20,000 bases of DNA. Origin: an uncultured virus (IMG/VR IMGVR_UViG_3300025326_000019) (taxonomy: Duplodnaviria; Heunggongvirae; Uroviricota; Caudoviricetes). The notes under the pieces are model-generated. The model made no database searches and had not been told where the DNA came from. It saw only the letters and a list, made by a program, of their open reading frames with translations. Location: IMG/VR virus record IMGVR_UViG_3300025326_000019; one strand, written 5' to 3'. Made by a program: the position numbers and the translations under genes. Shown piece after piece: positions 8,814 to 19,147 of the stretch (positions are counted from its first letter, which is position 1; every line of letters starts with the position of its first letter).

Positions 8814-9473
8814 ATGCCACAATATAAAGAAGGCACTGCCCGGGCACTCAGCGCTGCACATCAACGGATTGAGCTTGTGGGTGGTACGACCACAAATCAT
8901 ATCGTCACAGGGGATCTCTTCCGGTTCCGTGCTGACGTCGCGTCAGCTTGGTTCGAAGTCTCGAGCATCGTCAGCGCCACGATTTTCGATTTGACGGGGC
9001 CGTATAACGCGGCCCAGGCATTCGATACGCTGCTCCCATATCTCATTGTCAGGGATTTTACCCCGAATTTCGAAATCCCAGAACTGGCGCCTGGAGACAT
9101 TGCCATCCGGGAAGTCTTCACGGAAGCCATGCGCGTGATCGATGGTATCCTGTCCTTTGCCGCGCGGGCTGAGTTCTCATTTGTCGGTGCGCTCTCCATT
9201 GGAGACAAGCCGTTCCGGTGGTATTCTCCACTTCGCATGACCACGCGGACGGTGCACATTTCCGTAGGATCGCCCGCTACGAGTCCCGTCACAGTGGATG
9301 TCAAGAAGAATGGGTCCACCGTGTTTACTGACTCGGCGGCAAGGCCAACTATCGGTGTTGGCCAGTATTCTGCTGAAGTTCCGTGTGCAGCATCGCTCGT
9401 AACCAATGACTACCTAACGGTTAGTATTATCGCGTCAGGTGGTTCAGATTTGGTCGTACAGGTGAGGTTTTAG
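8814..9473 (+). CDS. Tail fibre/spike-related virion protein (219 aa)
   Basis: RBS GAGGTG. The N-terminus resembles phage tail-fibre attachment domains (YKEGT...GDLF...FEVSSIVSAT..DLTGPY...YLIVRDFT). The small C-terminal beta domain reads VTVDVKKNGSTVF...DYLTVSI...SDLVVQV. Confidence 0.6.
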   Translation: MPQYKEGTARALSAAHQRIELVGGTTTNHIVTGDLFRFRADVASAWFEVSSIVSATIFDLTGPYNAAQAFDTLLPYLIVRDFTPNFEIPELAPGDIAIREVFTEAMRVIDGILSFAARAEFSFVGALSIGDKPFRWYSPLRMTTRTVHISVGSPATSPVTVDVKKNGSTVFTDSAARPTIGVGQYSAEVPCAASLVTNDYLTVSIIASGGSDLVVQVRF

Positions 9474-9475
9474 GA

Positions 9476-9832
9476 ATGGCTAATTCCCGCGAACGCCTTG
9501 AATTTCGTTCTCCGAAAGACCCCAAGCCAACTTGGGCGCTTTTTCCGAACGAAATTGCCAAGCAACCAGGCCTTGTGATCGTTGCCAACGCCAAAGGCCG
9601 TGTGATCGCTACCATTGACCCCGTTACTCGCGAACGCCGCACGCTCAATGGGACCGTCGAAGCCAAGCTATCCCCACAGGGCTGGCTCCTGCCCATTTCC
9701 GACACTGCAATGATCTTCAATCACGCACCGCGTCAAGTTCAGCCGAATTACGAGCTTTCCCTGGCTCGGGATAGGGATCCTCGGTCGGCGTCACAGCGAG
9801 AGAGAAGGAAGAGCAACGGAAAAAGGGCTTGA
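9476..9832 (+). CDS. Hypothetical protein (118 aa) with basic C-terminus
   Basis: ATG lies 2 nt after the previous stop. Last gene before the promoter; its stop codon lies inside the TTGACA -35 box. Confidence 0.55.
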   Translation: MANSRERLEFRSPKDPKPTWALFPNEIAKQPGLVIVANAKGRVIATIDPVTRERRTLNGTVEAKLSPQGWLLPISDTAMIFNHAPRQVQPNYELSLARDRDPRSASQRERRKSNGKRA

Positions 9833-9857
9833 CAAAAGCCACCACCATCAGTACGAT
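9829..9857 (+). promoter_or_regulatory. Sigma70-type promoter at the late/early module boundary
   Basis: TTGACA (9829-9834), 17-nt spacer, TACGAT (9852-9857), with an A-rich tract upstream. Confidence 0.8.
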
Positions 9858-9864
9858 TCTCGCC

Positions 9865-9990
9865 GTGACGCTAAAAAAGGGCTTGCCGAAATCCCGTACC
9901 TGCCCCAAGTGTAGTGTTACGTGGGTACCGCGCAAGCTTACATCCGTGAAGTGTCCAAGGTGCTGGGTTCTTCTACCGAAGGAGGGCTAA
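9865..9990 (+). CDS. Small zinc-ribbon protein (41 aa), probably leaderless; not in ORF track
   Basis: GTG...TAA translates as MTLKKGLPKSRTCPKCSVTWVPRKLTSVKCPRCWVLLPKEG, with two CPxC knuckles. The GTG lies 7 nt after the -10 box. The stop sits 1 nt before the next ATG. Confidence 0.75.
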   Translation: MTLKKGLPKSRTCPKCSVTWVPRKLTSVKCPRCWVLLPKEG

Positions 9991-9991
9991 C

Positions 9992-10207
9992 ATGGCGAAA
10001 TCACTTCACGTTCCAGGCGTCCCGAAGGGTTTCACGGGCCATATTCTGTGGATCCGGAAAGGTCAGGATGCTCAGTACTATATCCGCCTTATCTCGCGCA
10101 ACCGGCAGATTCGGATGGTCAGCGAAGCCTATCCGACGCGCACACATGCCAAGCGTGCCGCCAAGAGTCTAGCGTCCGCACGGACGGCAGCCTGGGTGAT
10201 CGTATGA
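9992..10207 (+). CDS. YegP / DUF1508-like small protein (71 aa)
   Basis: RBS AAGGAGG. WIRKGQDAQYYIRLISRNRQIRMVSEAYPTRTHAKRAAKSL matches the DUF1508 pattern (G.[WY]..RL.A.NG.I...SE.Y.....A). Confidence 0.75.
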   Translation: MAKSLHVPGVPKGFTGHILWIRKGQDAQYYIRLISRNRQIRMVSEAYPTRTHAKRAAKSLASARTAAWVIV

Positions 10208-10707
10208 AGAATGCTACGGGCCTGCGTAGCAACTCCACCGCAATGAAGAATGCCGGCAGCATTAGCCTTGCATTTGTGTGGGGTATCCGTCTCAGGCTCT
10301 GGGCCGAGGGCGACAAGCTCCGGGCCGAGGGCGCCAAGCTCTGGGCCGAGGGCGCCAAGCTCCGGGCCGAGGGCGCCAAGCTCCGGGCCGAGGGCGCCAA
10401 GCTCCGGGCCGAGGGCGACAAGCTCCGGGCCGAGGGCGACAAGCTCTGGGCCGAGGGCGCCAAGCTCTGGGCCGAGGGCGACAAGCTCCGGGCCGAGGGC
10501 GACAAGCTCTGGGCCGAGGGCGACAAGCTCCGGGCCGAGGGCGCCAAGCTCTGGGCCGAGGGCGGCAAGCTCCGAGCCGAGGGCGGCAAGCTCTGGGCTG
10601 AGGGCATTCTTGAGGCCCACGGGAATATCCGCGTGGAATGGGTGTACCGCGAAGGCAAGGATAGCTATGCGTGCAAACTAGAAACTGGCGAAGTCTTTGA
10701 GCCGTGA
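10204..10707 (+). CDS. Heptad-repeat (KL[R/W]AEG[D/A/G]) protein, about 167 aa
   Basis: ATG at 10204 overlaps the upstream stop (ATGA); an alternative ATG lies at 10243. Fifteen 7-aa repeats are flanked by short unique regions. Confidence 0.75.
   Translation: MKNATGLRSNSTAMKNAGSISLAFVWGIRLRLWAEGDKLRAEGAKLWAEGAKLRAEGAKLRAEGAKLRAEGDKLRAEGDKLWAEGAKLWAEGDKLRAEGDKLWAEGDKLRAEGAKLWAEGGKLRAEGGKLWAEGILEAHGNIRVEWVYREGKDSYACKLETGEVFEP
10294..10608 (+). repeat. Tandem repeat, 15 x 21 nt, consensus AAGCTCYGGGCCGAGGGCGVC
   Basis: Read directly: units start at 10294, 10315 and so on to 10588, with no spacers. Confidence 0.97.
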
Positions 10708-10827
10708 AGGCCTTGGCCCGTTATAGGCACGACAAAACCTGTGCAGCTGCGAGCTCCATAGGACAAATCGTGCGCCTCTCGCAGAGGAAAGCGATGGTCA
10801 TTGCGACCACGCCGGGCCTTCTTTTTT
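10706..10827 (+). ncRNA. Candidate structured RNA element (four-way junction) closing onto a T-tract; possible terminator/attenuator
   Basis: P1: GAAGGCC-T-TGGC (10706-10717) pairs with GCCG-GGCCTTC (10811-10821), followed by TTTTTT (10822-10827). P2: GCACGA/TCGTGC, CCTGTG/CATAGG and AGC/GCT. P3: CCTC/GAGG. P4: TGGTC/GACCA. It fills the only sizeable intergenic gap in the window. Confidence 0.6.
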
Positions 10828-10840
10828 GGAGCAGAGGTAG

Positions 10841-11332
10841 ATGAATACAGTAGCGATGAATACAGTAGCTGAACAGATTGCCGAGTTGAAGCGCATCGGT
10901 CTCGTCGCGTCCACCATGCCTGATCGGTTGGCCCAGACGAGAGCCATCCTAAGCAATCTCCGTGCTGATCTCGAGTCAGCCTCTAGTCTTGTAAAGGATC
11001 GTGAGGCTGAAACGTTGTCACTGGTATCGGCTGAAACGTTACCAGACAGCGCCAAGCCTGCGTTTTCAAACAAGGAATCCCGTGAGGCAGAGGTACGACA
11101 GCGTTTGGCTGAGGATGTGACCTATAAATTTCTCGTAGGTGAAGAACAGAATGCACAGCGGCAAAAGTCGGACGTCGAGATTCAGCTAGCGAAGCTACAG
11201 GATGAAGATCGGCTCATTGATCGTCAACTTGAGGCTGTCGCAGCATCCTTACGCGCAGAAACTGTCCAGTTGCTTCGGCAAGCTCTCGTAGACTTTGTCT
11301 CTGTTGAAGCACGGCGACTAACGGACAAGTAA
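10841..11332 (+). CDS. Coiled-coil phage protein (163 aa)
   Basis: RBS GAGGT. Helical heptad pattern, with the motif FSNKESREAEV. Confidence 0.7.
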   Translation: MNTVAMNTVAEQIAELKRIGLVASTMPDRLAQTRAILSNLRADLESASSLVKDREAETLSLVSAETLPDSAKPAFSNKESREAEVRQRLAEDVTYKFLVGEEQNAQRQKSDVEIQLAKLQDEDRLIDRQLEAVAASLRAETVQLLRQALVDFVSVEARRLTDK

Positions 11333-11333
11333 T

Positions 11334-11570
11334 ATGATGCCCACATTGTCTCCACAAGGAGGGTGGCCGAGCGCTGACGGTCTTCCATGCTGCGGCTGTG
11401 GAGCAGACCTGAATTACAGTGAATGTGTGCAAGTAAGCTTCTCTGATCGTAACTTCATGGCGTTTTGTGGTTTCAAATGTCTAGCGCTCTGGACTCATTA
11501 TTTCTCAGGGCGCTTTGATGAAGTGCGTGCGTGGACAGCGTTGGTAGAACCGCGTTCGGTGTCTCACTAA
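11334..11570 (+). CDS. Small Cys-rich (TRASH-like metal-binding) protein (78 aa)
   Basis: CCGC...FCGFKC motif. The ORF fills the gap between its neighbours. Confidence 0.55.
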   Translation: MMPTLSPQGGWPSADGLPCCGCGADLNYSECVQVSFSDRNFMAFCGFKCLALWTHYFSGRFDEVRAWTALVEPRSVSH

Positions 11571-11595
11571 CAACCAAGGTTGTACGGAGGGCATC

Positions 11596-12498
11596 ATGAC
11601 TGACCCAGTTACTGGTACCACGACCAGCGTAATTCCTAGCCACACCGGCCTCGCCAAGAAGCGCGATCCGATGCTCGAGATGGCCGAATCCAAGACCGTG
11701 CCGCCAATTCTCCGGGAACACTTTACGGAGACCGATTGGGGCGCGATGGCGGTCCCAGATCGCATGGAAGCGCTCGCGTTCTTCGCAGCGGAGCAAGCGG
11801 AGACGACCAAAGGCCTCATCATCACGTTTCCGCAGATCAAGTATCCCACCGCGCAGGCCGGCGTCTGGGTTGTACCGGATGCCACAGGCACGCCGCAATA
11901 TCGTCCGACTATCGGCGGAGTGATTCTGTTCAAACAGCCCGTGAGGGCATATTGGCCAATCGACAAACCACTGTCGAATGATCCACCCATGTGCTCATCG
12001 CCAGACGGACGGAAACCTGATACGCCTGGACCGATCAATCCAATCGGTGGTCGACAAGCCGATACCTGCGCAGCCTGCCCACGCTCAGTATTTGGGACAG
12101 GCAAGGAGGGTGAAGGGCAGGCTTGTAAGGCCAGGATCAACACATTTAATCTCATGGATCAGAATGGGCACGACGTCAAACAGCCTCTTCAACTTGAGGA
12201 AATCCCTACGCTGATCTCCGTTCCACCTAGTCAGCTCAAGGCATTCAGTGAATACGCCGTCCAGGTCAGGAAAAGTTCCACGGGCTCGCTGCTCGCCTGG
12301 ACTACGACGTTCGGTCTCAAAGATGACAAGAACAAGCGCGGGACGGAATTCAAGGCGCTCGTCCTGTCGACAGGGAAAAAGCTCACCTATGAACAAATGC
12401 AGACGTGTCGGAAAATCTCCGATAGCTTTGCGGATCAGTTCAGTCGGCGTGGCTTTGTGCCTGAGGATGCTGAAGAGGAACCCACGTTCCCAAGCTAG
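11596..12498 (+). CDS. Putative phage single-stranded DNA-binding protein with Zn motif (300 aa)
   Basis: RBS GGAGG. Motif CSSPDG...CAACP...FGTG...GQACK, and an acidic C-terminal tail (EDAEEEPTFPS) typical of SSBs. Sits in the recombination module. Confidence 0.6.
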   Translation: MTDPVTGTTTSVIPSHTGLAKKRDPMLEMAESKTVPPILREHFTETDWGAMAVPDRMEALAFFAAEQAETTKGLIITFPQIKYPTAQAGVWVVPDATGTPQYRPTIGGVILFKQPVRAYWPIDKPLSNDPPMCSSPDGRKPDTPGPINPIGGRQADTCAACPRSVFGTGKEGEGQACKARINTFNLMDQNGHDVKQPLQLEEIPTLISVPPSQLKAFSEYAVQVRKSSTGSLLAWTTTFGLKDDKNKRGTEFKALVLSTGKKLTYEQMQTCRKISDSFADQFSRRGFVPEDAEEEPTFPS

Positions 12499-12504
12499 CT
12501 GCGA

Positions 12505-12903
12505 ATGCGAGTATTAGAAGTCTGGATCCCAGGTGTCGTGGTTAGCGTAAACACGTTCCGGCGTCGCGGCACCAGGGATCGCATGGCAACCATCAAGATG
12601 GAGCGGGACAGAGCCAAGGCATGCGCGCTCAAGGCTGTACGGGAGAAGTATCGGAGTGGGGATGACACGTGGACTGGGCCGACAACTATCGACTTTGAAA
12701 TCTATACAAGTCGTACGCTGAAAGATCGTTTGCAAGTAGGGGGGGCACTAAAGGCCACACAGGATGGAATTTGCCTTGCTATCCTCCCACTTGGCGATGG
12801 GCATGGAACACCGTACGTTTGGCGTGAACCAACGCAGATCAAAGTCAAGACACGGAAGGAAGAGGGCGTGCTAGTGACGATACAAGAACTTAGCAATGGG
12901 TAA
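12505..12903 (+). CDS. RusA-like Holliday junction resolvase fold protein (132 aa), divergent active site
   Basis: Size and pattern fit: IPG...SVN, a basic helix, beta strand GPTTIDFEIY, D....ALKATQDGI, and terminal strand EGVLVTIQEL. Confidence 0.55.
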   Translation: MRVLEVWIPGVVVSVNTFRRRGTRDRMATIKMERDRAKACALKAVREKYRSGDDTWTGPTTIDFEIYTSRTLKDRLQVGGALKATQDGICLAILPLGDGHGTPYVWREPTQIKVKTRKEEGVLVTIQELSNG

Positions 12904-13795
12904 AACCAATATCGAGTGGGCAACCGATGTTTGGAATCCCGTTCGCGGATGTTCTCGTGTATCCGAAGGATGCCGTTTTTGTTACGCAGAAATCATCGCA
13001 GCTCGTTTCTCTGACTCCGGGATGCCATATGAAGACCTCGCTACGCGTACCTCAATAGGCCCACGGTGGACCGGCAAAGTCCAATTCATTGAAAAGCATC
13101 TATTTGATCCGATCAAATGGAAAGCGCCGCGAAGAATATTTGTCGCAAGTATGTCCGATCCGAATCACGAAAAAGTTCCTAACTCGTGGCGGGACCAAAT
13201 GCTTGCTGTGATGATTCAGGCACCGCAACATAAGTATCTCTGGCTGACGAAGCGGGCCGACAACATGCTGGCATACTTCGCCGACCCGCATACACGCAAT
13301 AGAGTTGCTGCTCAACTTGGTTGGCGACCAGAGCGTATGAATAACACGTGGCCAATTCCAGGTCTCTGGTTAGGTGTATCCGTCGAAAATCAAGCAACGG
13401 CCGATGAACGGATTCCGTTGTTACTCGAAACGCCAGCGGCGATACGGTGGATAAGTTACGAACCCGCATTAGGAGTCGTAGATTTCTCTTCTAGGCCGAT
13501 GGAAGAAGGCTGGTATCACAACTGGTTGAAGATTACTGAGACAGAACCACCAATTCCACGGCTCGACTGGATCGTATGTGGCGGTGAGAGCGGTTCTGGT
13601 GCACGGCCTTTTGACCTCACATGGGCTCGGCAGACCATCATTCAGTGTACTGAGGCAGGTATTCCGGCGTTCATAAAACAGCTTGGAAGTACGCCTGTTA
13701 ATGGCACAGAGAAGATACATCTCATAGACCGCAAGGGCGGCGATTTGGACGAATGGCCAGAAGATCTCCGCGTACGAGAATTTCCAGATGCCTAA
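12896..13795 (+). CDS. Phage Gp37/Gp68 family protein (DUF5131, radical-SAM-like)
   Basis: Motifs TNIEWATDVWNPVRGCSRVSEGCRFCYA, IFVASMSD, LTKR, WLGVSVENQ, SYEPALG, LDWIVCGGESGSGARP, FIKQLG and REFP. Confidence 0.92.
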   Translation: MGKTNIEWATDVWNPVRGCSRVSEGCRFCYAEIIAARFSDSGMPYEDLATRTSIGPRWTGKVQFIEKHLFDPIKWKAPRRIFVASMSDPNHEKVPNSWRDQMLAVMIQAPQHKYLWLTKRADNMLAYFADPHTRNRVAAQLGWRPERMNNTWPIPGLWLGVSVENQATADERIPLLLETPAAIRWISYEPALGVVDFSSRPMEEGWYHNWLKITETEPPIPRLDWIVCGGESGSGARPFDLTWARQTIIQCTEAGIPAFIKQLGSTPVNGTEKIHLIDRKGGDLDEWPEDLRVREFPDA

Positions 13796-14149: not shown

Positions 14150-14427
14150 TCTACCTCGTATTACTCAAGGGTGGCGTCAGGAAATGGCAAACCCTTGGGC
14201 ATTTATCAGAACCCAAGGTGGTATGGAATATTCCGGTTCCACGCCATGGTGTATTTAGCTGGATTAGCACGCCTATGTGTGCCGCAGCAGAATTTACATC
14301 TCGAGAAGCCGCACAAACTGCTATCAATGTTACTGAAAAGTACATCGACGATCAGATTACTGCGGGCAATCCAAACTTTACTAAGATCCCTGGAATTAAA
14401 TACTGTATTGCGAAGGTGGAGGAATGA
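14146..14427 (+). CDS. Hypothetical protein (93 aa)
   Basis: ATG at 14146 (MIYLVLLKGG...) with ATGA overlaps at both ends. Confidence 0.55.
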   Translation: MIYLVLLKGGVRKWQTLGHLSEPKVVWNIPVPRHGVFSWISTPMCAAAEFTSREAAQTAINVTEKYIDDQITAGNPNFTKIPGIKYCIAKVEE

Positions 14428-15530
14428 AGATCAGCGTACTTGGCGATCTTCACTTATCAGAACAAAGTCCGCGCTACGCCCACGCGCTTGAGGTCCTCGA
14501 TCACTGTATTGATGTCGGCGTCCAGCGTAACGCGAAGATCTGGGTATTTTGCGGTGACGTATTCGAAGGGAAGCCGACCCCTGGCGAGTATCACGCGTTC
14601 CTACAACGCGTGTACCGGATCATCGAACATGGTGGAATGGTCTGCGTTGTACGTGGCAATCACGAGGCCTACGAGGCCTATAGTTTTTTCGAACTCCTAA
14701 ACCCCATGATCCGGGTGGCGTGGGATGCGTTCCTTTGGCAGGAATTCGACGCATGCCGAGTACTTCTCATGCCGTATCCCGTCCGCTATCGGCCACCGTT
14801 TCACGCCGTTTACCAGGAGACGATCTCAGGAAGTATGCGAGCATCGGTTAATCTCATAGCTGACAAAATACGAGAGGTTGCGGCCCTTGATGCTAAGTCC
14901 TTGTTCGTCTTTGGACATTTTTCTATTGAGGGCCTTACTACGAGAGACACAGATTTCGAGCGTCATTCTCCAAATGAGGTCGTAGTGCCTCTTGAGGCAT
15001 TCGAGCCGACAGCTCTCACGCGCGTTGGCCACATTCACAGAGCTCAGCAACTCACAGATAAAACCGGAAGCGTCGGTTCGTTATACCGAACAAGTTTTGC
15101 CGAAATCGATGATCCGAAGATCTTCTGCCTCATTACCGTAGCTGACGATGGCACGATAACGACCGAAGATATCCCAACTGGATGTCGCGGCATGCGCGAG
15201 TTTGCTCTTGAACTTGATGACCTCACCAGTACTACGCTTCGTGAGATCGAGGACGTCGCTGCGCAGGGCATTGAAATCAAGGTCGTGCTTAGCATGGCAT
15301 CGACCGAAGTTTCACGCTATGATCCCACGGTCTTCGACAAGGTGAAAGCGACCGCGCCACTGTTTGTGCTGGAGAAAGACGTGCGGCCTGTGCAACGTGT
15401 CCGAGCACCGGCGTTACAGCCCAATATGAACCTGACCGAGGAATTCTTTGCGTGGACGCAAGCTATTGGAACTGAGATCGCGGCCGAGCGTATGCCGAGC
15501 ATTGGTGAGAAACTAAGAGAGCTAGAATGA
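14424..15530 (+). CDS. sbcD: Mre11/SbcD-like metallophosphoesterase nuclease (368 aa)
   Basis: All five phosphoesterase motifs are present: GDLH, GDVF, GNHE, GH and GHIH. RBS GGAGG. An SbcC-like gene lies downstream. Confidence 0.9.
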   Translation: MKISVLGDLHLSEQSPRYAHALEVLDHCIDVGVQRNAKIWVFCGDVFEGKPTPGEYHAFLQRVYRIIEHGGMVCVVRGNHEAYEAYSFFELLNPMIRVAWDAFLWQEFDACRVLLMPYPVRYRPPFHAVYQETISGSMRASVNLIADKIREVAALDAKSLFVFGHFSIEGLTTRDTDFERHSPNEVVVPLEAFEPTALTRVGHIHRAQQLTDKTGSVGSLYRTSFAEIDDPKIFCLITVADDGTITTEDIPTGCRGMREFALELDDLTSTTLREIEDVAAQGIEIKVVLSMASTEVSRYDPTVFDKVKATAPLFVLEKDVRPVQRVRAPALQPNMNLTEEFFAWTQAIGTEIAAERMPSIGEKLRELE

Positions 15531-16667: not shown

Positions 16668-19147
16668 TTCTCCACCGTCTCTTGAGCGCTGGCACCATTC
16701 CATTCCCAAAGGAAATTGTTGTGGATTTCGACGCTCTACCTACGGTTATCGCGTGTCATGGGAAAAACGGTGCTGGCAAAAGTACATTTTTAGAACTCTG
16801 CGTAAGCTGCTTTTACTTGACGATGCCATTTCGGCCAGGGCCTTTGTATAAAAACTTCGCATCACGAGGGTATATTGACTTGACGTGGAGCGCAGTCCCC
16901 GGTGGTCCGCGATTCAGGTCGCGTCTCAATATTGATCCAGTAGCAGAACGTGTAGAAGCTAGTCTCTTCAACGCCGAAGGAGGTTCAGCTATTGCCGGGC
17001 CGCTTGCACGGGACTACCTAATTGAAATGCGAAAGCGAGGGATCCCACCGCTTGACGTGTTCCTCTCGACAGCTTACACGCTCCAGCCGAGTTCGACAAC
17101 GGCCAAGAACTTCTTTAGCTTTCTCCTCGCTGACCGAGCCGAGCGCCGGGAGATCTTTGCCGAGCTCCTGGGGCTCAAGCCTTACCAGATACGCGAGGCA
17201 GTGGCCAAGGACAAACTCAAGGCCCTGGATACACAGATCGTCGGGAATGCGGGCCTGATCCGGGCGCTCGAGCAAGACATTATGAAGCGTCCAGCGGCAG
17301 CCGAGAGGGTTCAGGACACCGTGGCGAGGCTAGAAGCCGCCAAAACAGCCCGCGATGACCTCAGGAGCCGCTTGGAGGGGCTCAGGATAGCCGCAGCAGA
17401 CGCCAAAGCGCGGGTAGCCGCTATCCTACCCTTCCGGGCGCAGAAAGACGCCCTGACGGCTGAGGTGGGCGTTCTGATAGCCAAACAAACGGCCATTGAG
17501 AAGACGTTGGTAGCCGCCCGCGTGGACATAGCCGCAGCGACAGAGGTCCAAGAGGTACCAGCCGAGAAGGAAGCATTGATTGCGAGGCGTGCTAGCCTAC
17601 TGCCACTTAAAACGCAGGTCGACGACTTGGACAAGGAGATCAGCGGACTTGAGATTGAGCTACTCGAGATCGCTGAAAACATCAAGCGTAACGAGTACTT
17701 ACTGGCCGAGGAAGATATCATACTTGCTTCGGTCGACAGGATGACTGCAGTACAGGCTGAAATTGCCGCTCTAGACGCAGAAATTGACCGCGAAATGGCT
17801 ACAGATTCAGCAGCTCTAAGTGCCTACCAGGATTGGCTTTCTATCAGAAATGACCTTGCGGCAAAGATGGCAGAAGAACAGCGCCTGCAGCTCCAGATCT
17901 CTACGATGGACTCAGTCCCGTGTAAGGGGGTCGACGAGTTTGCCGGCTGCAAGTTTCTTAGCCAGGCCGCGGCGGCGCAGAGCACCCTGCCAGGCGTCCA
18001 TGCGGACGTTATCGCGCTTAAGGAACAGGTGGGCGAGTTACGGACAACGCCGGTCGCTGCAGCGCCTCCGCTTAAGGCTAAGCGTGCAACTATGCTCATT
18101 GACAGGGATAATTTAGCACCGCTGGTCAGCAAGCAGGTAGACCTTGCGTCCGCACGGTCACGTGTGGACGGCTTAAGCGACCGCAAGGTCCGGGTATCTG
18201 TGACATTGGACGACAAGCGCGTGGCCCGAGATGCTCTGACAGATCAGGTCACAGTACTTCCAGTAGTTAATGCCGCGCTTCGAGCGATCGAGCCCAAGGT
18301 CATTCTGGCCGCTACCCTCGGACCAGCACGTGCGGTTGAGGCACAGGCTGTCCTGACACTTGGCGAAATAGGCCTTACGCTGGCCGACAAGCGGATTGCG
18401 GTAGATATGGTCACAGCCTATCTCGACGGGCTGACTGATGCCGAGGCTGCGGTTACACAGGCCGACACCGCCCTGTCATGGTCCAGCATAGAACTGCAGA
18501 AGGCCGAGAGTACCCTGGGCACCATCGAGCGAGAACTTGGATCAGCCCAGGCAGAACTGACTCGGCTGGAGGAGACTGCGGCACGGCTCGAGCGCCTCAG
18601 GGTGGAGATGCTGCCGCTTCAGTCTGACTTTGAAGATTGGAGTCTGATTGCACGGAGCCAGGGGCCTACCGGTATCCCTGCACTGCGCGTCGATCGCGCC
18701 ATCCCGGAAATCGGTGAGCGAGCGACAGAGTTATTACGCGAATGTCTGGGCGAGACTATTTTTACCATTTTGCTCACCACACAAAAACAGTCCGCAGATG
18801 AGAAAAAACTTCTCGAAACGCTCGACGTTATCGTCCTGCGCAATGGGAAGCCAATGGACGCCGCACTCTTATCCGGCGGTGAAGGTGTACTGGTCTCTGA
18901 GGCGCTGTCGTTATCGATCGCGCTCTACAATGCAGAACGATCAGGTGCGAGATCCTATACGTTATTCAGGGACGAGGTGGGCGCGGCCTTAGATGCTGCA
19001 CGCGCTCCCGCGTTTACACGATTGCTTGCTCGCGCCGCACGGATAGGTGGTTTTGACAAAATTTTATTTGTTTCACATAATAAGGAAAGCGTAGAACTTG
19101 CCGATGCAAGACTCGAATTTTCCAACGGTATTATAACAGTTTCATGA
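16664..19147 (+). CDS. sbcC: Rad50/SbcC-like SMC ATPase (about 827 aa)
   Basis: Likely ATG at 16664 (ATGA overlap). Walker A GKNGAGKS, long coiled coil, signature LSGGE, Walker B/D-loop LFRDEVGAALD, H-loop VSH. Confidence 0.92.
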   Translation: MILHRLLSAGTIPFPKEIVVDFDALPTVIACHGKNGAGKSTFLELCVSCFYLTMPFRPGPLYKNFASRGYIDLTWSAVPGGPRFRSRLNIDPVAERVEASLFNAEGGSAIAGPLARDYLIEMRKRGIPPLDVFLSTAYTLQPSSTTAKNFFSFLLADRAERREIFAELLGLKPYQIREAVAKDKLKALDTQIVGNAGLIRALEQDIMKRPAAAERVQDTVARLEAAKTARDDLRSRLEGLRIAAADAKARVAAILPFRAQKDALTAEVGVLIAKQTAIEKTLVAARVDIAAATEVQEVPAEKEALIARRASLLPLKTQVDDLDKEISGLEIELLEIAENIKRNEYLLAEEDIILASVDRMTAVQAEIAALDAEIDREMATDSAALSAYQDWLSIRNDLAAKMAEEQRLQLQISTMDSVPCKGVDEFAGCKFLSQAAAAQSTLPGVHADVIALKEQVGELRTTPVAAAPPLKAKRATMLIDRDNLAPLVSKQVDLASARSRVDGLSDRKVRVSVTLDDKRVARDALTDQVTVLPVVNAALRAIEPKVILAATLGPARAVEAQAVLTLGEIGLTLADKRIAVDMVTAYLDGLTDAEAAVTQADTALSWSSIELQKAESTLGTIERELGSAQAELTRLEETAARLERLRVEMLPLQSDFEDWSLIARSQGPTGIPALRVDRAIPEIGERATELLRECLGETIFTILLTTQKQSADEKKLLETLDVIVLRNGKPMDAALLSGGEGVLVSEALSLSIALYNAERSGARSYTLFRDEVGAALDAARAPAFTRLLARAARIGGFDKILFVSHNKESVELADARLEFSNGIITVS

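Follow-up and report, generated by a model that had tools for sequence, protein, structure and literature searches.

What fills the gap at positions 10708-10840 in a stretch of phage DNA that is otherwise tightly packed with genes? The stretch, called the window below, is 20,000 nucleotides (nt) long and comes from an uncultured virus of the Caudoviricetes (IMG/VR record IMGVR_UViG_3300025326_000019). The gap is taken up by a sequence at 10706-10827, hereafter the element, for which an earlier note had proposed a structured RNA of a new type, a four-way junction with complementary loops whose closing stem is followed by a run of T. The four-way junction is real as a predicted RNA fold. Judging from its anatomy and its place among the genes, we consider it about an even call that this is an intrinsic (Rho-independent) terminator or attenuator of branched shape, leaky or regulated, that acts on the + strand.

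Folding of 10700-10830 gave a minimum free energy (MFE) structure of -55.3 kcal/mol that reproduces the proposed junction, and none of 200 dinucleotide shuffles was as stable (z -3.37). Every sequence feature on which the proposal was built was found where it had been placed. Core pairs have probabilities (p) of 0.81-1.0, and the four helices reach at least 0.94. The predicted parts and what directly follows them are listed here in base pairs (bp), nt and amino acids (aa):

10715-10720, + strand: 5' strand of the closing stem P1, GGCCCG, paired with 10813-10818 (p 0.94-0.98)
10727-10773, + strand: long arm P2, with 6 bp, a 5x5 A-rich internal loop, 6 bp (one of them G-U), a 1x1 C/C mismatch, 4 bp and a GCG loop (p 0.81-1.0)
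10727-10732 / 10768-10773, + strand: outer helix of P2, GCACGA / TCGTGC
10738-10743 / 10757-10762, + strand: second helix of P2, CCTGTG / CATAGG, with one G-U pair (G10741-U10759)
10775-10787, + strand: hairpin P3, CCUCU-CGC-AGAGG (p 0.81-1.0)
10791-10812, + strand: hairpin P4, GCG-A-UGGUC AUUGC GACCA-CGC (p 0.98-1.0), abutting the 3' strand of P1 with 0 unpaired bases
10813-10818, + strand: 3' strand of P1, CGGGCC
10819-10827, + strand: U-rich tail TTCTTTTTT, 8 of 9 T, with T6 at 10822-10827
10828-10843, + strand: ribosome site GGAGCAGAGG and ATG 10841 of a 163-aa gene, beginning 1 nt after the T-run

The apex of P2, AGC-TGCGA-GCT, was confirmed in the sequence. The junction arms are separated by 6, 1, 3 and 0 unpaired bases, the single one being G10774 between P2 and P3, and the pairing is imperfect, interrupted by internal loops and a bulge and including one G-U pair. 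Two of the proposed helices had to be redrawn. A closing stem does exist, but the register first suggested for it (10706-10712/10815-10821, GAAGGCC/GGCCTTC and onward) has a probability of only 0.015. P4 is present as TGGTC-ATTGC-GACCA at 10795-10809 and is lengthened by GCG 10791-10793 paired with CGC 10810-10812; bases 10810-10812 belong to this extension, not to P1. Closure of P1 is worth -12.2 kcal/mol (-49.8 versus -37.6), and when growing prefixes were folded the helices appeared in the order P2, P3, P4, with P1 last. The fold was kept in five of seven larger sequence contexts, with P1 at p of at least 0.89.

The fold exceeds chance moderately. When 2650 sliding 125-nt windows from both strands were ranked by GC-corrected MFE, those of the element came 13th (- strand) and 18th (+ strand), and 14 of the 17 that rank above its + strand window lie in an adjacent 21-nt tandem repeat; outside this repeat, 9 of 958 windows of the same length were equally stable.

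The 3' end of the junction has most features of an intrinsic terminator. The 3' strand of P1 ends at 10818 and is directly followed by UUCUUUUUU, and the T-run lies 3' of the stem on the + strand only. Runs of at least six T occur on this strand twice in 20 kb, the other (14684-14689) being inside the open reading frame (ORF) 14424-15530. Intrinsic terminators have a GC-rich stem that ends 0-3 nt before a U-rich tract of about 7-9 nt, and they lie 3' of a gene read in the same direction; here CGGGCC directly adjoins TTCTTTTTT, and the gene on the 5' side has its stop at 10705-10707. The case for RNA of the + strand rests on the T-run, the gene orientation and one G-U pair, G10741-U10759, which is the sole G-U pair of the core and pairs only as + strand. 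No promoter-like sequence was seen in a consensus scan between the element and the next gene; since, in addition, a ribosome site stands 1 nt past the T-run, the recombination and replication genes downstream would need read-through.

It should be noted, however, that several observations weigh against this reading. In two of the seven larger contexts P1 was displaced (p 0.01 and 0.55), as its GGCCCG strand has alternative partners in the many CCGGGCC motifs of the 21-nt repeat upstream. The reverse strand folds equally well (z -3.57) and single-stranded DNA (ssDNA) gives the same junction (z -2.66, 2 of 200 shuffles as stable), so that folding energy alone is no guide to the strand. The stem is not that of a simple hairpin with a 3-8-nt loop, as it encloses 92 nt (10721-10812) with three hairpins; the absence of a simple hairpin at the T-tract, already pointed out in the note, was borne out by a consensus hairpin-plus-T scan, which lists no site there. 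In the portions of the literature available to us, neither this element nor any intrinsic terminator with a four-way junction was described. Matches to consensus signals across the window are about as frequent as in shuffled sequence (promoter-like, 18 versus 16.1; terminator-like, 17 versus 16.8), and the host's own signals may differ from these consensuses. Homologues were not found, hence there is no covariation support. Finally, an ORF spans the gap (10704-10844) and shares 4 nt with the gene on either side, an arrangement that this phage has at five other junctions, so the region may encode a protein.

The genes and signals on which a mechanism would depend are these:

9829-9857, + strand: promoter-like site TTGACA-17-TACGAT (10 of 12 matches, a consensus match only)
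9992-10207, + strand: first gene of a short cassette, 71 aa, weakly DUF1508-like (PF07411, E 8.7e-4, below the Pfam cut-off)
10204-10707, + strand: second cassette gene, a 167-aa heptad-repeat protein (AEGxKL[RW] about 14 times)
10704-10844, + strand: ORF46, 46 codons from GTG to TGA
10841-11332, + strand: 163-aa coiled-coil-like gene, the first of the recombination/replication block

The site at 9829-9857 is the only promoter-like sequence ahead of the element in 9000-13000, and it probably drives the cassette genes. The transcript of this promoter-proximal pair (the DUF1508-like and heptad-repeat genes) would then carry the element as its 3' untranslated tail. As RNA polymerase advances, P2, P3 and P4 would fold one after another, and the emerging CGGGCC (10813-10818) would pair with GGCCCG (10715-10720) and close the junction. 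A closed GC-rich stem right before UUCUUUUUU would present the geometry that releases transcripts. In this way the element would set, and could regulate, the transcription that passes from the cassette into the recombination/replication block. Termination, its leakiness or antitermination, and a temporal role are what we infer from this arrangement; by analogy, the boundary may be of the immediate-early/delayed-early type. Among the functions suggested earlier, an attenuator or terminator fits both the anatomy and the gene context, whereas a riboswitch, a small RNA (sRNA) and an ssDNA priming signal found no positive evidence.

If the branched fold does terminate transcription, nature would here provide an intrinsic terminator with a four-way junction closed by its stem. 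Such a geometry escapes standard terminator finders, and termination would depend on folding of the whole domain, which would make it simple to regulate read-through where two phage modules meet.

We consider it unlikely that the element is instead a structured RNA of a new kind, acting in cis or in trans (like a riboswitch or an antiterminator, or as an sRNA with its own terminator), in which the junction, perhaps with P2 docked on P3, is the functional unit. The four-way fold is very well defined, which would suit such an RNA, and transcriptional attenuators usually have their terminator right before a ribosome site, where the putative terminator also lies here. The remark that the element matches no recognised family also held: Rfam returned 0 matches at gathering thresholds over the whole window and 0 at E up to 10 over 10650-10880. 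Against this, no promoter-like site was seen just upstream, covariation is lacking for want of homologues in the collections searched, and the element occurs once in the window and once in the matching 24.8-kb virus record, whereas riboswitch classes are normally widespread.

The complementarity of the loops had been stressed in the note. TGCGA occurs at 10748-10752 (P2) and 10802-10806 (P4), and TCGCA at 10779-10783 (P3). The P2 and P3 pentamers are indeed complementary, but in the MFE fold the loops are only 3 nt long, closed by U-A pairs (p 0.81). A match of at least 5 nt between hairpin apices is common, appearing in 101 of 1000 shuffles, and the pentamers occur 44 times in 20 kb. When two stem bases to each side of the loops are included, the complementary stretch is 7 nt (CTGCGAG 10747-10753 / CTCGCAG 10778-10784), and an apex match of at least this length was found in 2 of 1000 shuffles, which favors a structured RNA but is weakly unusual and was noticed post hoc. 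Duplex energies are -5.2 kcal/mol for the 5 nt and -10.4 kcal/mol for the 7 nt. The second TGCGA had been regarded as a rival partner for P3, and although it is present, the P3-P4 alternative is costly: forcing the 7-bp loop helix or the P3-P4 pairing raised the energy by 8.5 or 10.3 kcal/mol, respectively, over the MFE. A thermodynamic switch is therefore not indicated, while a tertiary kissing contact between P2 and P3 is possible.

Searches for relatives of the element gave the following results. Distant-mode blastn of 10600-10900 against GenBank phages found nothing; an exact 25-mer of the P2 apex was absent from the viral contigs searched, and an exact 23-mer of the P3/P4 region from genome contigs of 185,579 species. 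A gapped pattern of the three loop motifs hit nine loci in viral contigs, and all nine were folded, none resembling the element. A covariance model built from the element's single sequence recovered only the element itself from the 24.8-kb record, four whole distant phage records and 74,337 bases of loci. No look-alikes were found among the other DNA windows of the same survey. ARAGORN detected 0 tRNA genes; a tRNA-like reading was also considered, as the junction spacing of 6, 1, 3 and 0 is cloverleaf-like, and was rejected because the arm sizes do not fit and ARAGORN found nothing. A published survey (PMC10690425) reports a predicted terminator in 1241 of 8495 candidate structured RNAs from IMG/VR. 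The element was found as one copy, in a single uncultured soil phage lineage, which does not establish a new RNA class.

A coding explanation also deserves attention, although its probability is low as well. ORF46 could be a real 46-aa gene coupled to both neighbors, with the fold secondary, or with a ribosome masking the 5' strand of P1 and suppressing termination in the manner of a leader peptide. ORF46 shares GTGA with the upstream stop and ATGA with the downstream start, and such 4-nt overlaps occur at five other gene junctions in the window. Its frame has the best codon score of the three (-0.01 versus -0.22 and -0.22), and a small gene coupled to the 163-aa gene occupies the same slot in relatives. 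In addition, the 5' strand of P1 begins 7 nt past the stop codon of the heptad-repeat gene, probably within the footprint of a ribosome; translation of ORF46, or a pause of the ribosome at that stop, would thus mask the strand and suppress termination. However, that score is at the 3rd percentile among true in-frame pieces and at the 97th among off-frame ones, and 17% of off-frame 46-codon windows (164 of 942) are open by chance. The Shine-Dalgarno match before GTG 10704 is weak. The product has no Pfam match at E up to 10, no PHROG match at E up to 1 and no BLASTP similarity to the proteins found in that slot in relatives, and against 1.84 billion representatives it had only two matches, giant repeat proteins that aligned via repeated segments. 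Its Atlas recognition was 1310, well under the 2300 reached by 91 of 100 real family members, and its fold model, a single helix with a predicted local distance difference test (pLDDT) value of 72.7 and a predicted template modeling (pTM) score of 0.33, was uninformative.

The slot in question can be seen in relatives of the 163-aa protein. Ten proteins were found, the best of them 100% identical and taken as the window's own protein, on contigs of up to 128,929 bases; three closer relatives have 61-70% identity, and with a fourth one counted the range is 53-70%. Two loci among the matches listed, both on metagenome contigs (57% and 38% identity), were compared at the DNA level. In both, a 61-69-aa HTH_3 (Cro/CI-type) gene lies directly ahead of the 163-aa homologue and overlaps it, and the element is not there:

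Contig L002, 1-192: HTH_3 gene
Contig L003, 183-392: HTH_3 gene

The presence of an HTH_3 gene instead of the element implies that the element is no old, conserved partner of the 163-aa gene. As the block in these relatives opens with its own HTH_3 gene, its start appears to be a control point in the lineage. In L003, a promoter-like TTGACG-17-GAATAT with an inverted repeat, read by eye, precedes the HTH_3 gene. The idea that the gap holds a decayed HTH gene was ruled out, as BLASTP gave no alignment at E up to 100. Elsewhere, relatives were scarce: the 163-aa, 300-aa and helicase proteins had no close relative in viral contigs, the DUF5131 protein had relatives only at 33-37% identity, an alignment of the 163-aa family found nothing in genome contigs, and tblastn of the 163-aa protein against GenBank phages found nothing.

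On its upstream side the element borders a mosaic joint. Up to 10704, contigs of three metagenome runs follow the last part of the heptad-repeat gene, that of X10 with 1 difference in 85 nt and those of X15 and X16 with 5 differences in 66 nt; from 10705 they diverge into unrelated sequence over at least 100-255 letters. The 5' edge of the element is therefore also a mosaic breakpoint, and related phages carry other sequence after the heptad-repeat gene. Breakpoints at stem-loops and terminators are common in phage module joints. A 30-letter consensus of the variant contig ends had no exact match in viral contigs. In a comparison of four low-share runs, a contig of run X10 had 0 differing letters over 10765-11340, and 10720-10744 was uncovered in all four; the covered part of the element thus showed no variation within the population.

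This breakpoint, together with the equal folding of both strands, would suit a small structured DNA repeat of a mobile or selfish kind, similar to repetitive extragenic palindromes (REP) or miniature inverted-repeat transposable elements (MITE), or a functionless leftover of recombination between phage modules. We regard this explanation as quite unlikely. A mobile repeat is expected in multiple copies, whereas the window and the 24.8-kb record hold one, and neither the exact 25-mer in viral contigs nor the exact 23-mer in genomes of the 185,579 species was recovered. Moreover, the variant sequence after 10704 does not resemble what follows the element, which speaks against a simple insertion, and the T-run and the orientation suit a terminator.

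The terminator reading also has a more demanding version, which is improbable in our estimation. The sensing fold might itself be the terminator, such that P1 forms and transcription stops only if the inner hairpins pack correctly, with the packing gated by the P2-P3 loop contact, by a bound factor or ligand, or by a ribosome on the stop codon or ORF46. If so, the element would gate the switch from the cassette to the recombination/replication genes.

Very improbable, finally, is an ssDNA structure (a priming or origin signal) or an RNA processing or stability site (e.g., for RNase III in P2) without termination. In its favor, the junction also forms in ssDNA (z -2.66), the long P2 hairpin is irregular and has an internal loop, and the element heads the replication block. 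Against it, iterons and an AT-rich tract were not found, the phage encodes Prim-Pol/DnaB with no indication that it needs such a site, the 16 bp of P2 are short for RNase III, and the T-run abutting the stem would be left unexplained.

The matching virus record is 24.8 kb long, with a completeness estimate of 19%, and near-identical DNA (at least half of sampled words) is present in 13 metagenome runs from soil or sediment; no RNA run was among those listed. The window is tiled by long ORFs of the + strand, which we take to be its genes, and their order is large ORFs, the short cassette, the element and the recombination/replication block. The large ORFs are presumably structural genes; they have almost no family match, with one weak fn3 match. 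Within the first ORF, whose 5' end is open, two tandem 120-nt copies (99-338) are 74% alike. Near the element, the sizeable gaps without a listed ORF of at least 100 aa are 9833-9991 and the element's own, with no others.

The first of these gaps, 160 nt long and ahead of the cassette, contains the promoter-like site 9829-9857, the sole one in 9000-13000. It falls within one of two copies of AAAAAGGGCTTGMC, which lie 54 nt apart (9820-9894) upstream of the DUF1508-like gene. The first copy includes the -35 of the site, and on the - strand each copy reads as a short hairpin and then T5-T6. The window's best promoter-like match is a different one, TTGACA-17-CATAAT (11 of 12) at 19053-19081, inside the end of the SbcC-like gene, and the HNH endonuclease gene follows shortly after it at 19144.

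In the cassette, the DUF1508-like gene has a strong ribosome site, GAAGGAGGG, and its stop overlaps the ATG of the heptad-repeat gene (ATGA), whose own TGA (10705-10707) lies 7 nt before P1. The C-terminal 42 aa of the heptad-repeat protein have two relatives. Its repeats are encoded at 10293-10605, where a 21-nt unit giving AEGxKL[R/W] is repeated head to tail about 14 times with 84-100% likeness between copies, followed by a non-repeat C-terminus of 33 aa; this tandem repeat is the most self-complementary stretch of the window.

Downstream, the 163-aa gene opens with a 15-nt tandem duplication, ATGAATACAGTAGCG / ATGAATACAGTAGCT (10841-10870), giving MNTVA MNTVA, and a contig of run X10 that lacks one copy indicates that the duplication is polymorphic. 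Short contigs from three runs contain a 36-nt piece of the same gene (11274-11309) with 6 differences, between flanks that are unrelated and AT-rich. After the 163-aa gene the block contains genes for a phrog_23155 protein, DUF5131, SbcD- and SbcC-like proteins and HNH, and Prim-Pol/DnaB helicase is encoded past the end of the window.

The favored reading, a branched terminator, can be compared with several known systems. Like canonical Rho-independent terminators, the element has a GC-rich stem (GGCCCG/CGGGCC) directly before a U-rich tail (8 of 9 U), is co-directional with the genes, begins its stem 7 nt after a stop codon and gains -12.2 kcal/mol from stem closure. Unlike them, it closes a junction of about 92 nt with three hairpins rather than a loop of 3-8 nt, and the next ribosome site stands 1 nt past its T-run, such that the downstream genes need read-through. 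In the yybP-ykoY (Mn2+) riboswitch and other four-way-junction aptamers, the closing helix is reported to decide whether a terminator acts, as might be the case here. In the element, however, the closing helix itself would be the terminator stem; no Rfam family matched at E up to 10, and neither conservation nor a candidate ligand is apparent.

In attenuators of the pyrBI type, translation of a leader peptide suppresses the terminator. Here, a 46-codon ORF runs through the putative terminator and ends at the start of the downstream gene, and a ribosome on it would block the stem; unlike a pyrBI leader, the putative ORF46 has its start not after a promoter but on the stop codon with which the gene before it ends. 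In lambda-type phages, an immediate-early gene is followed by a terminator and by delayed-early genes; tL1 and tR1, which are largely Rho-dependent, are overcome by antitermination, and HK022 uses its put RNA. The resemblance in the present case is one of layout; no N-, Q- or put-like component was identified, although no search was aimed at such components. In that layout, as in the lambda type, a promoter appears to be followed by one or two small genes, a terminator, and promoterless, co-directional recombination and replication genes.

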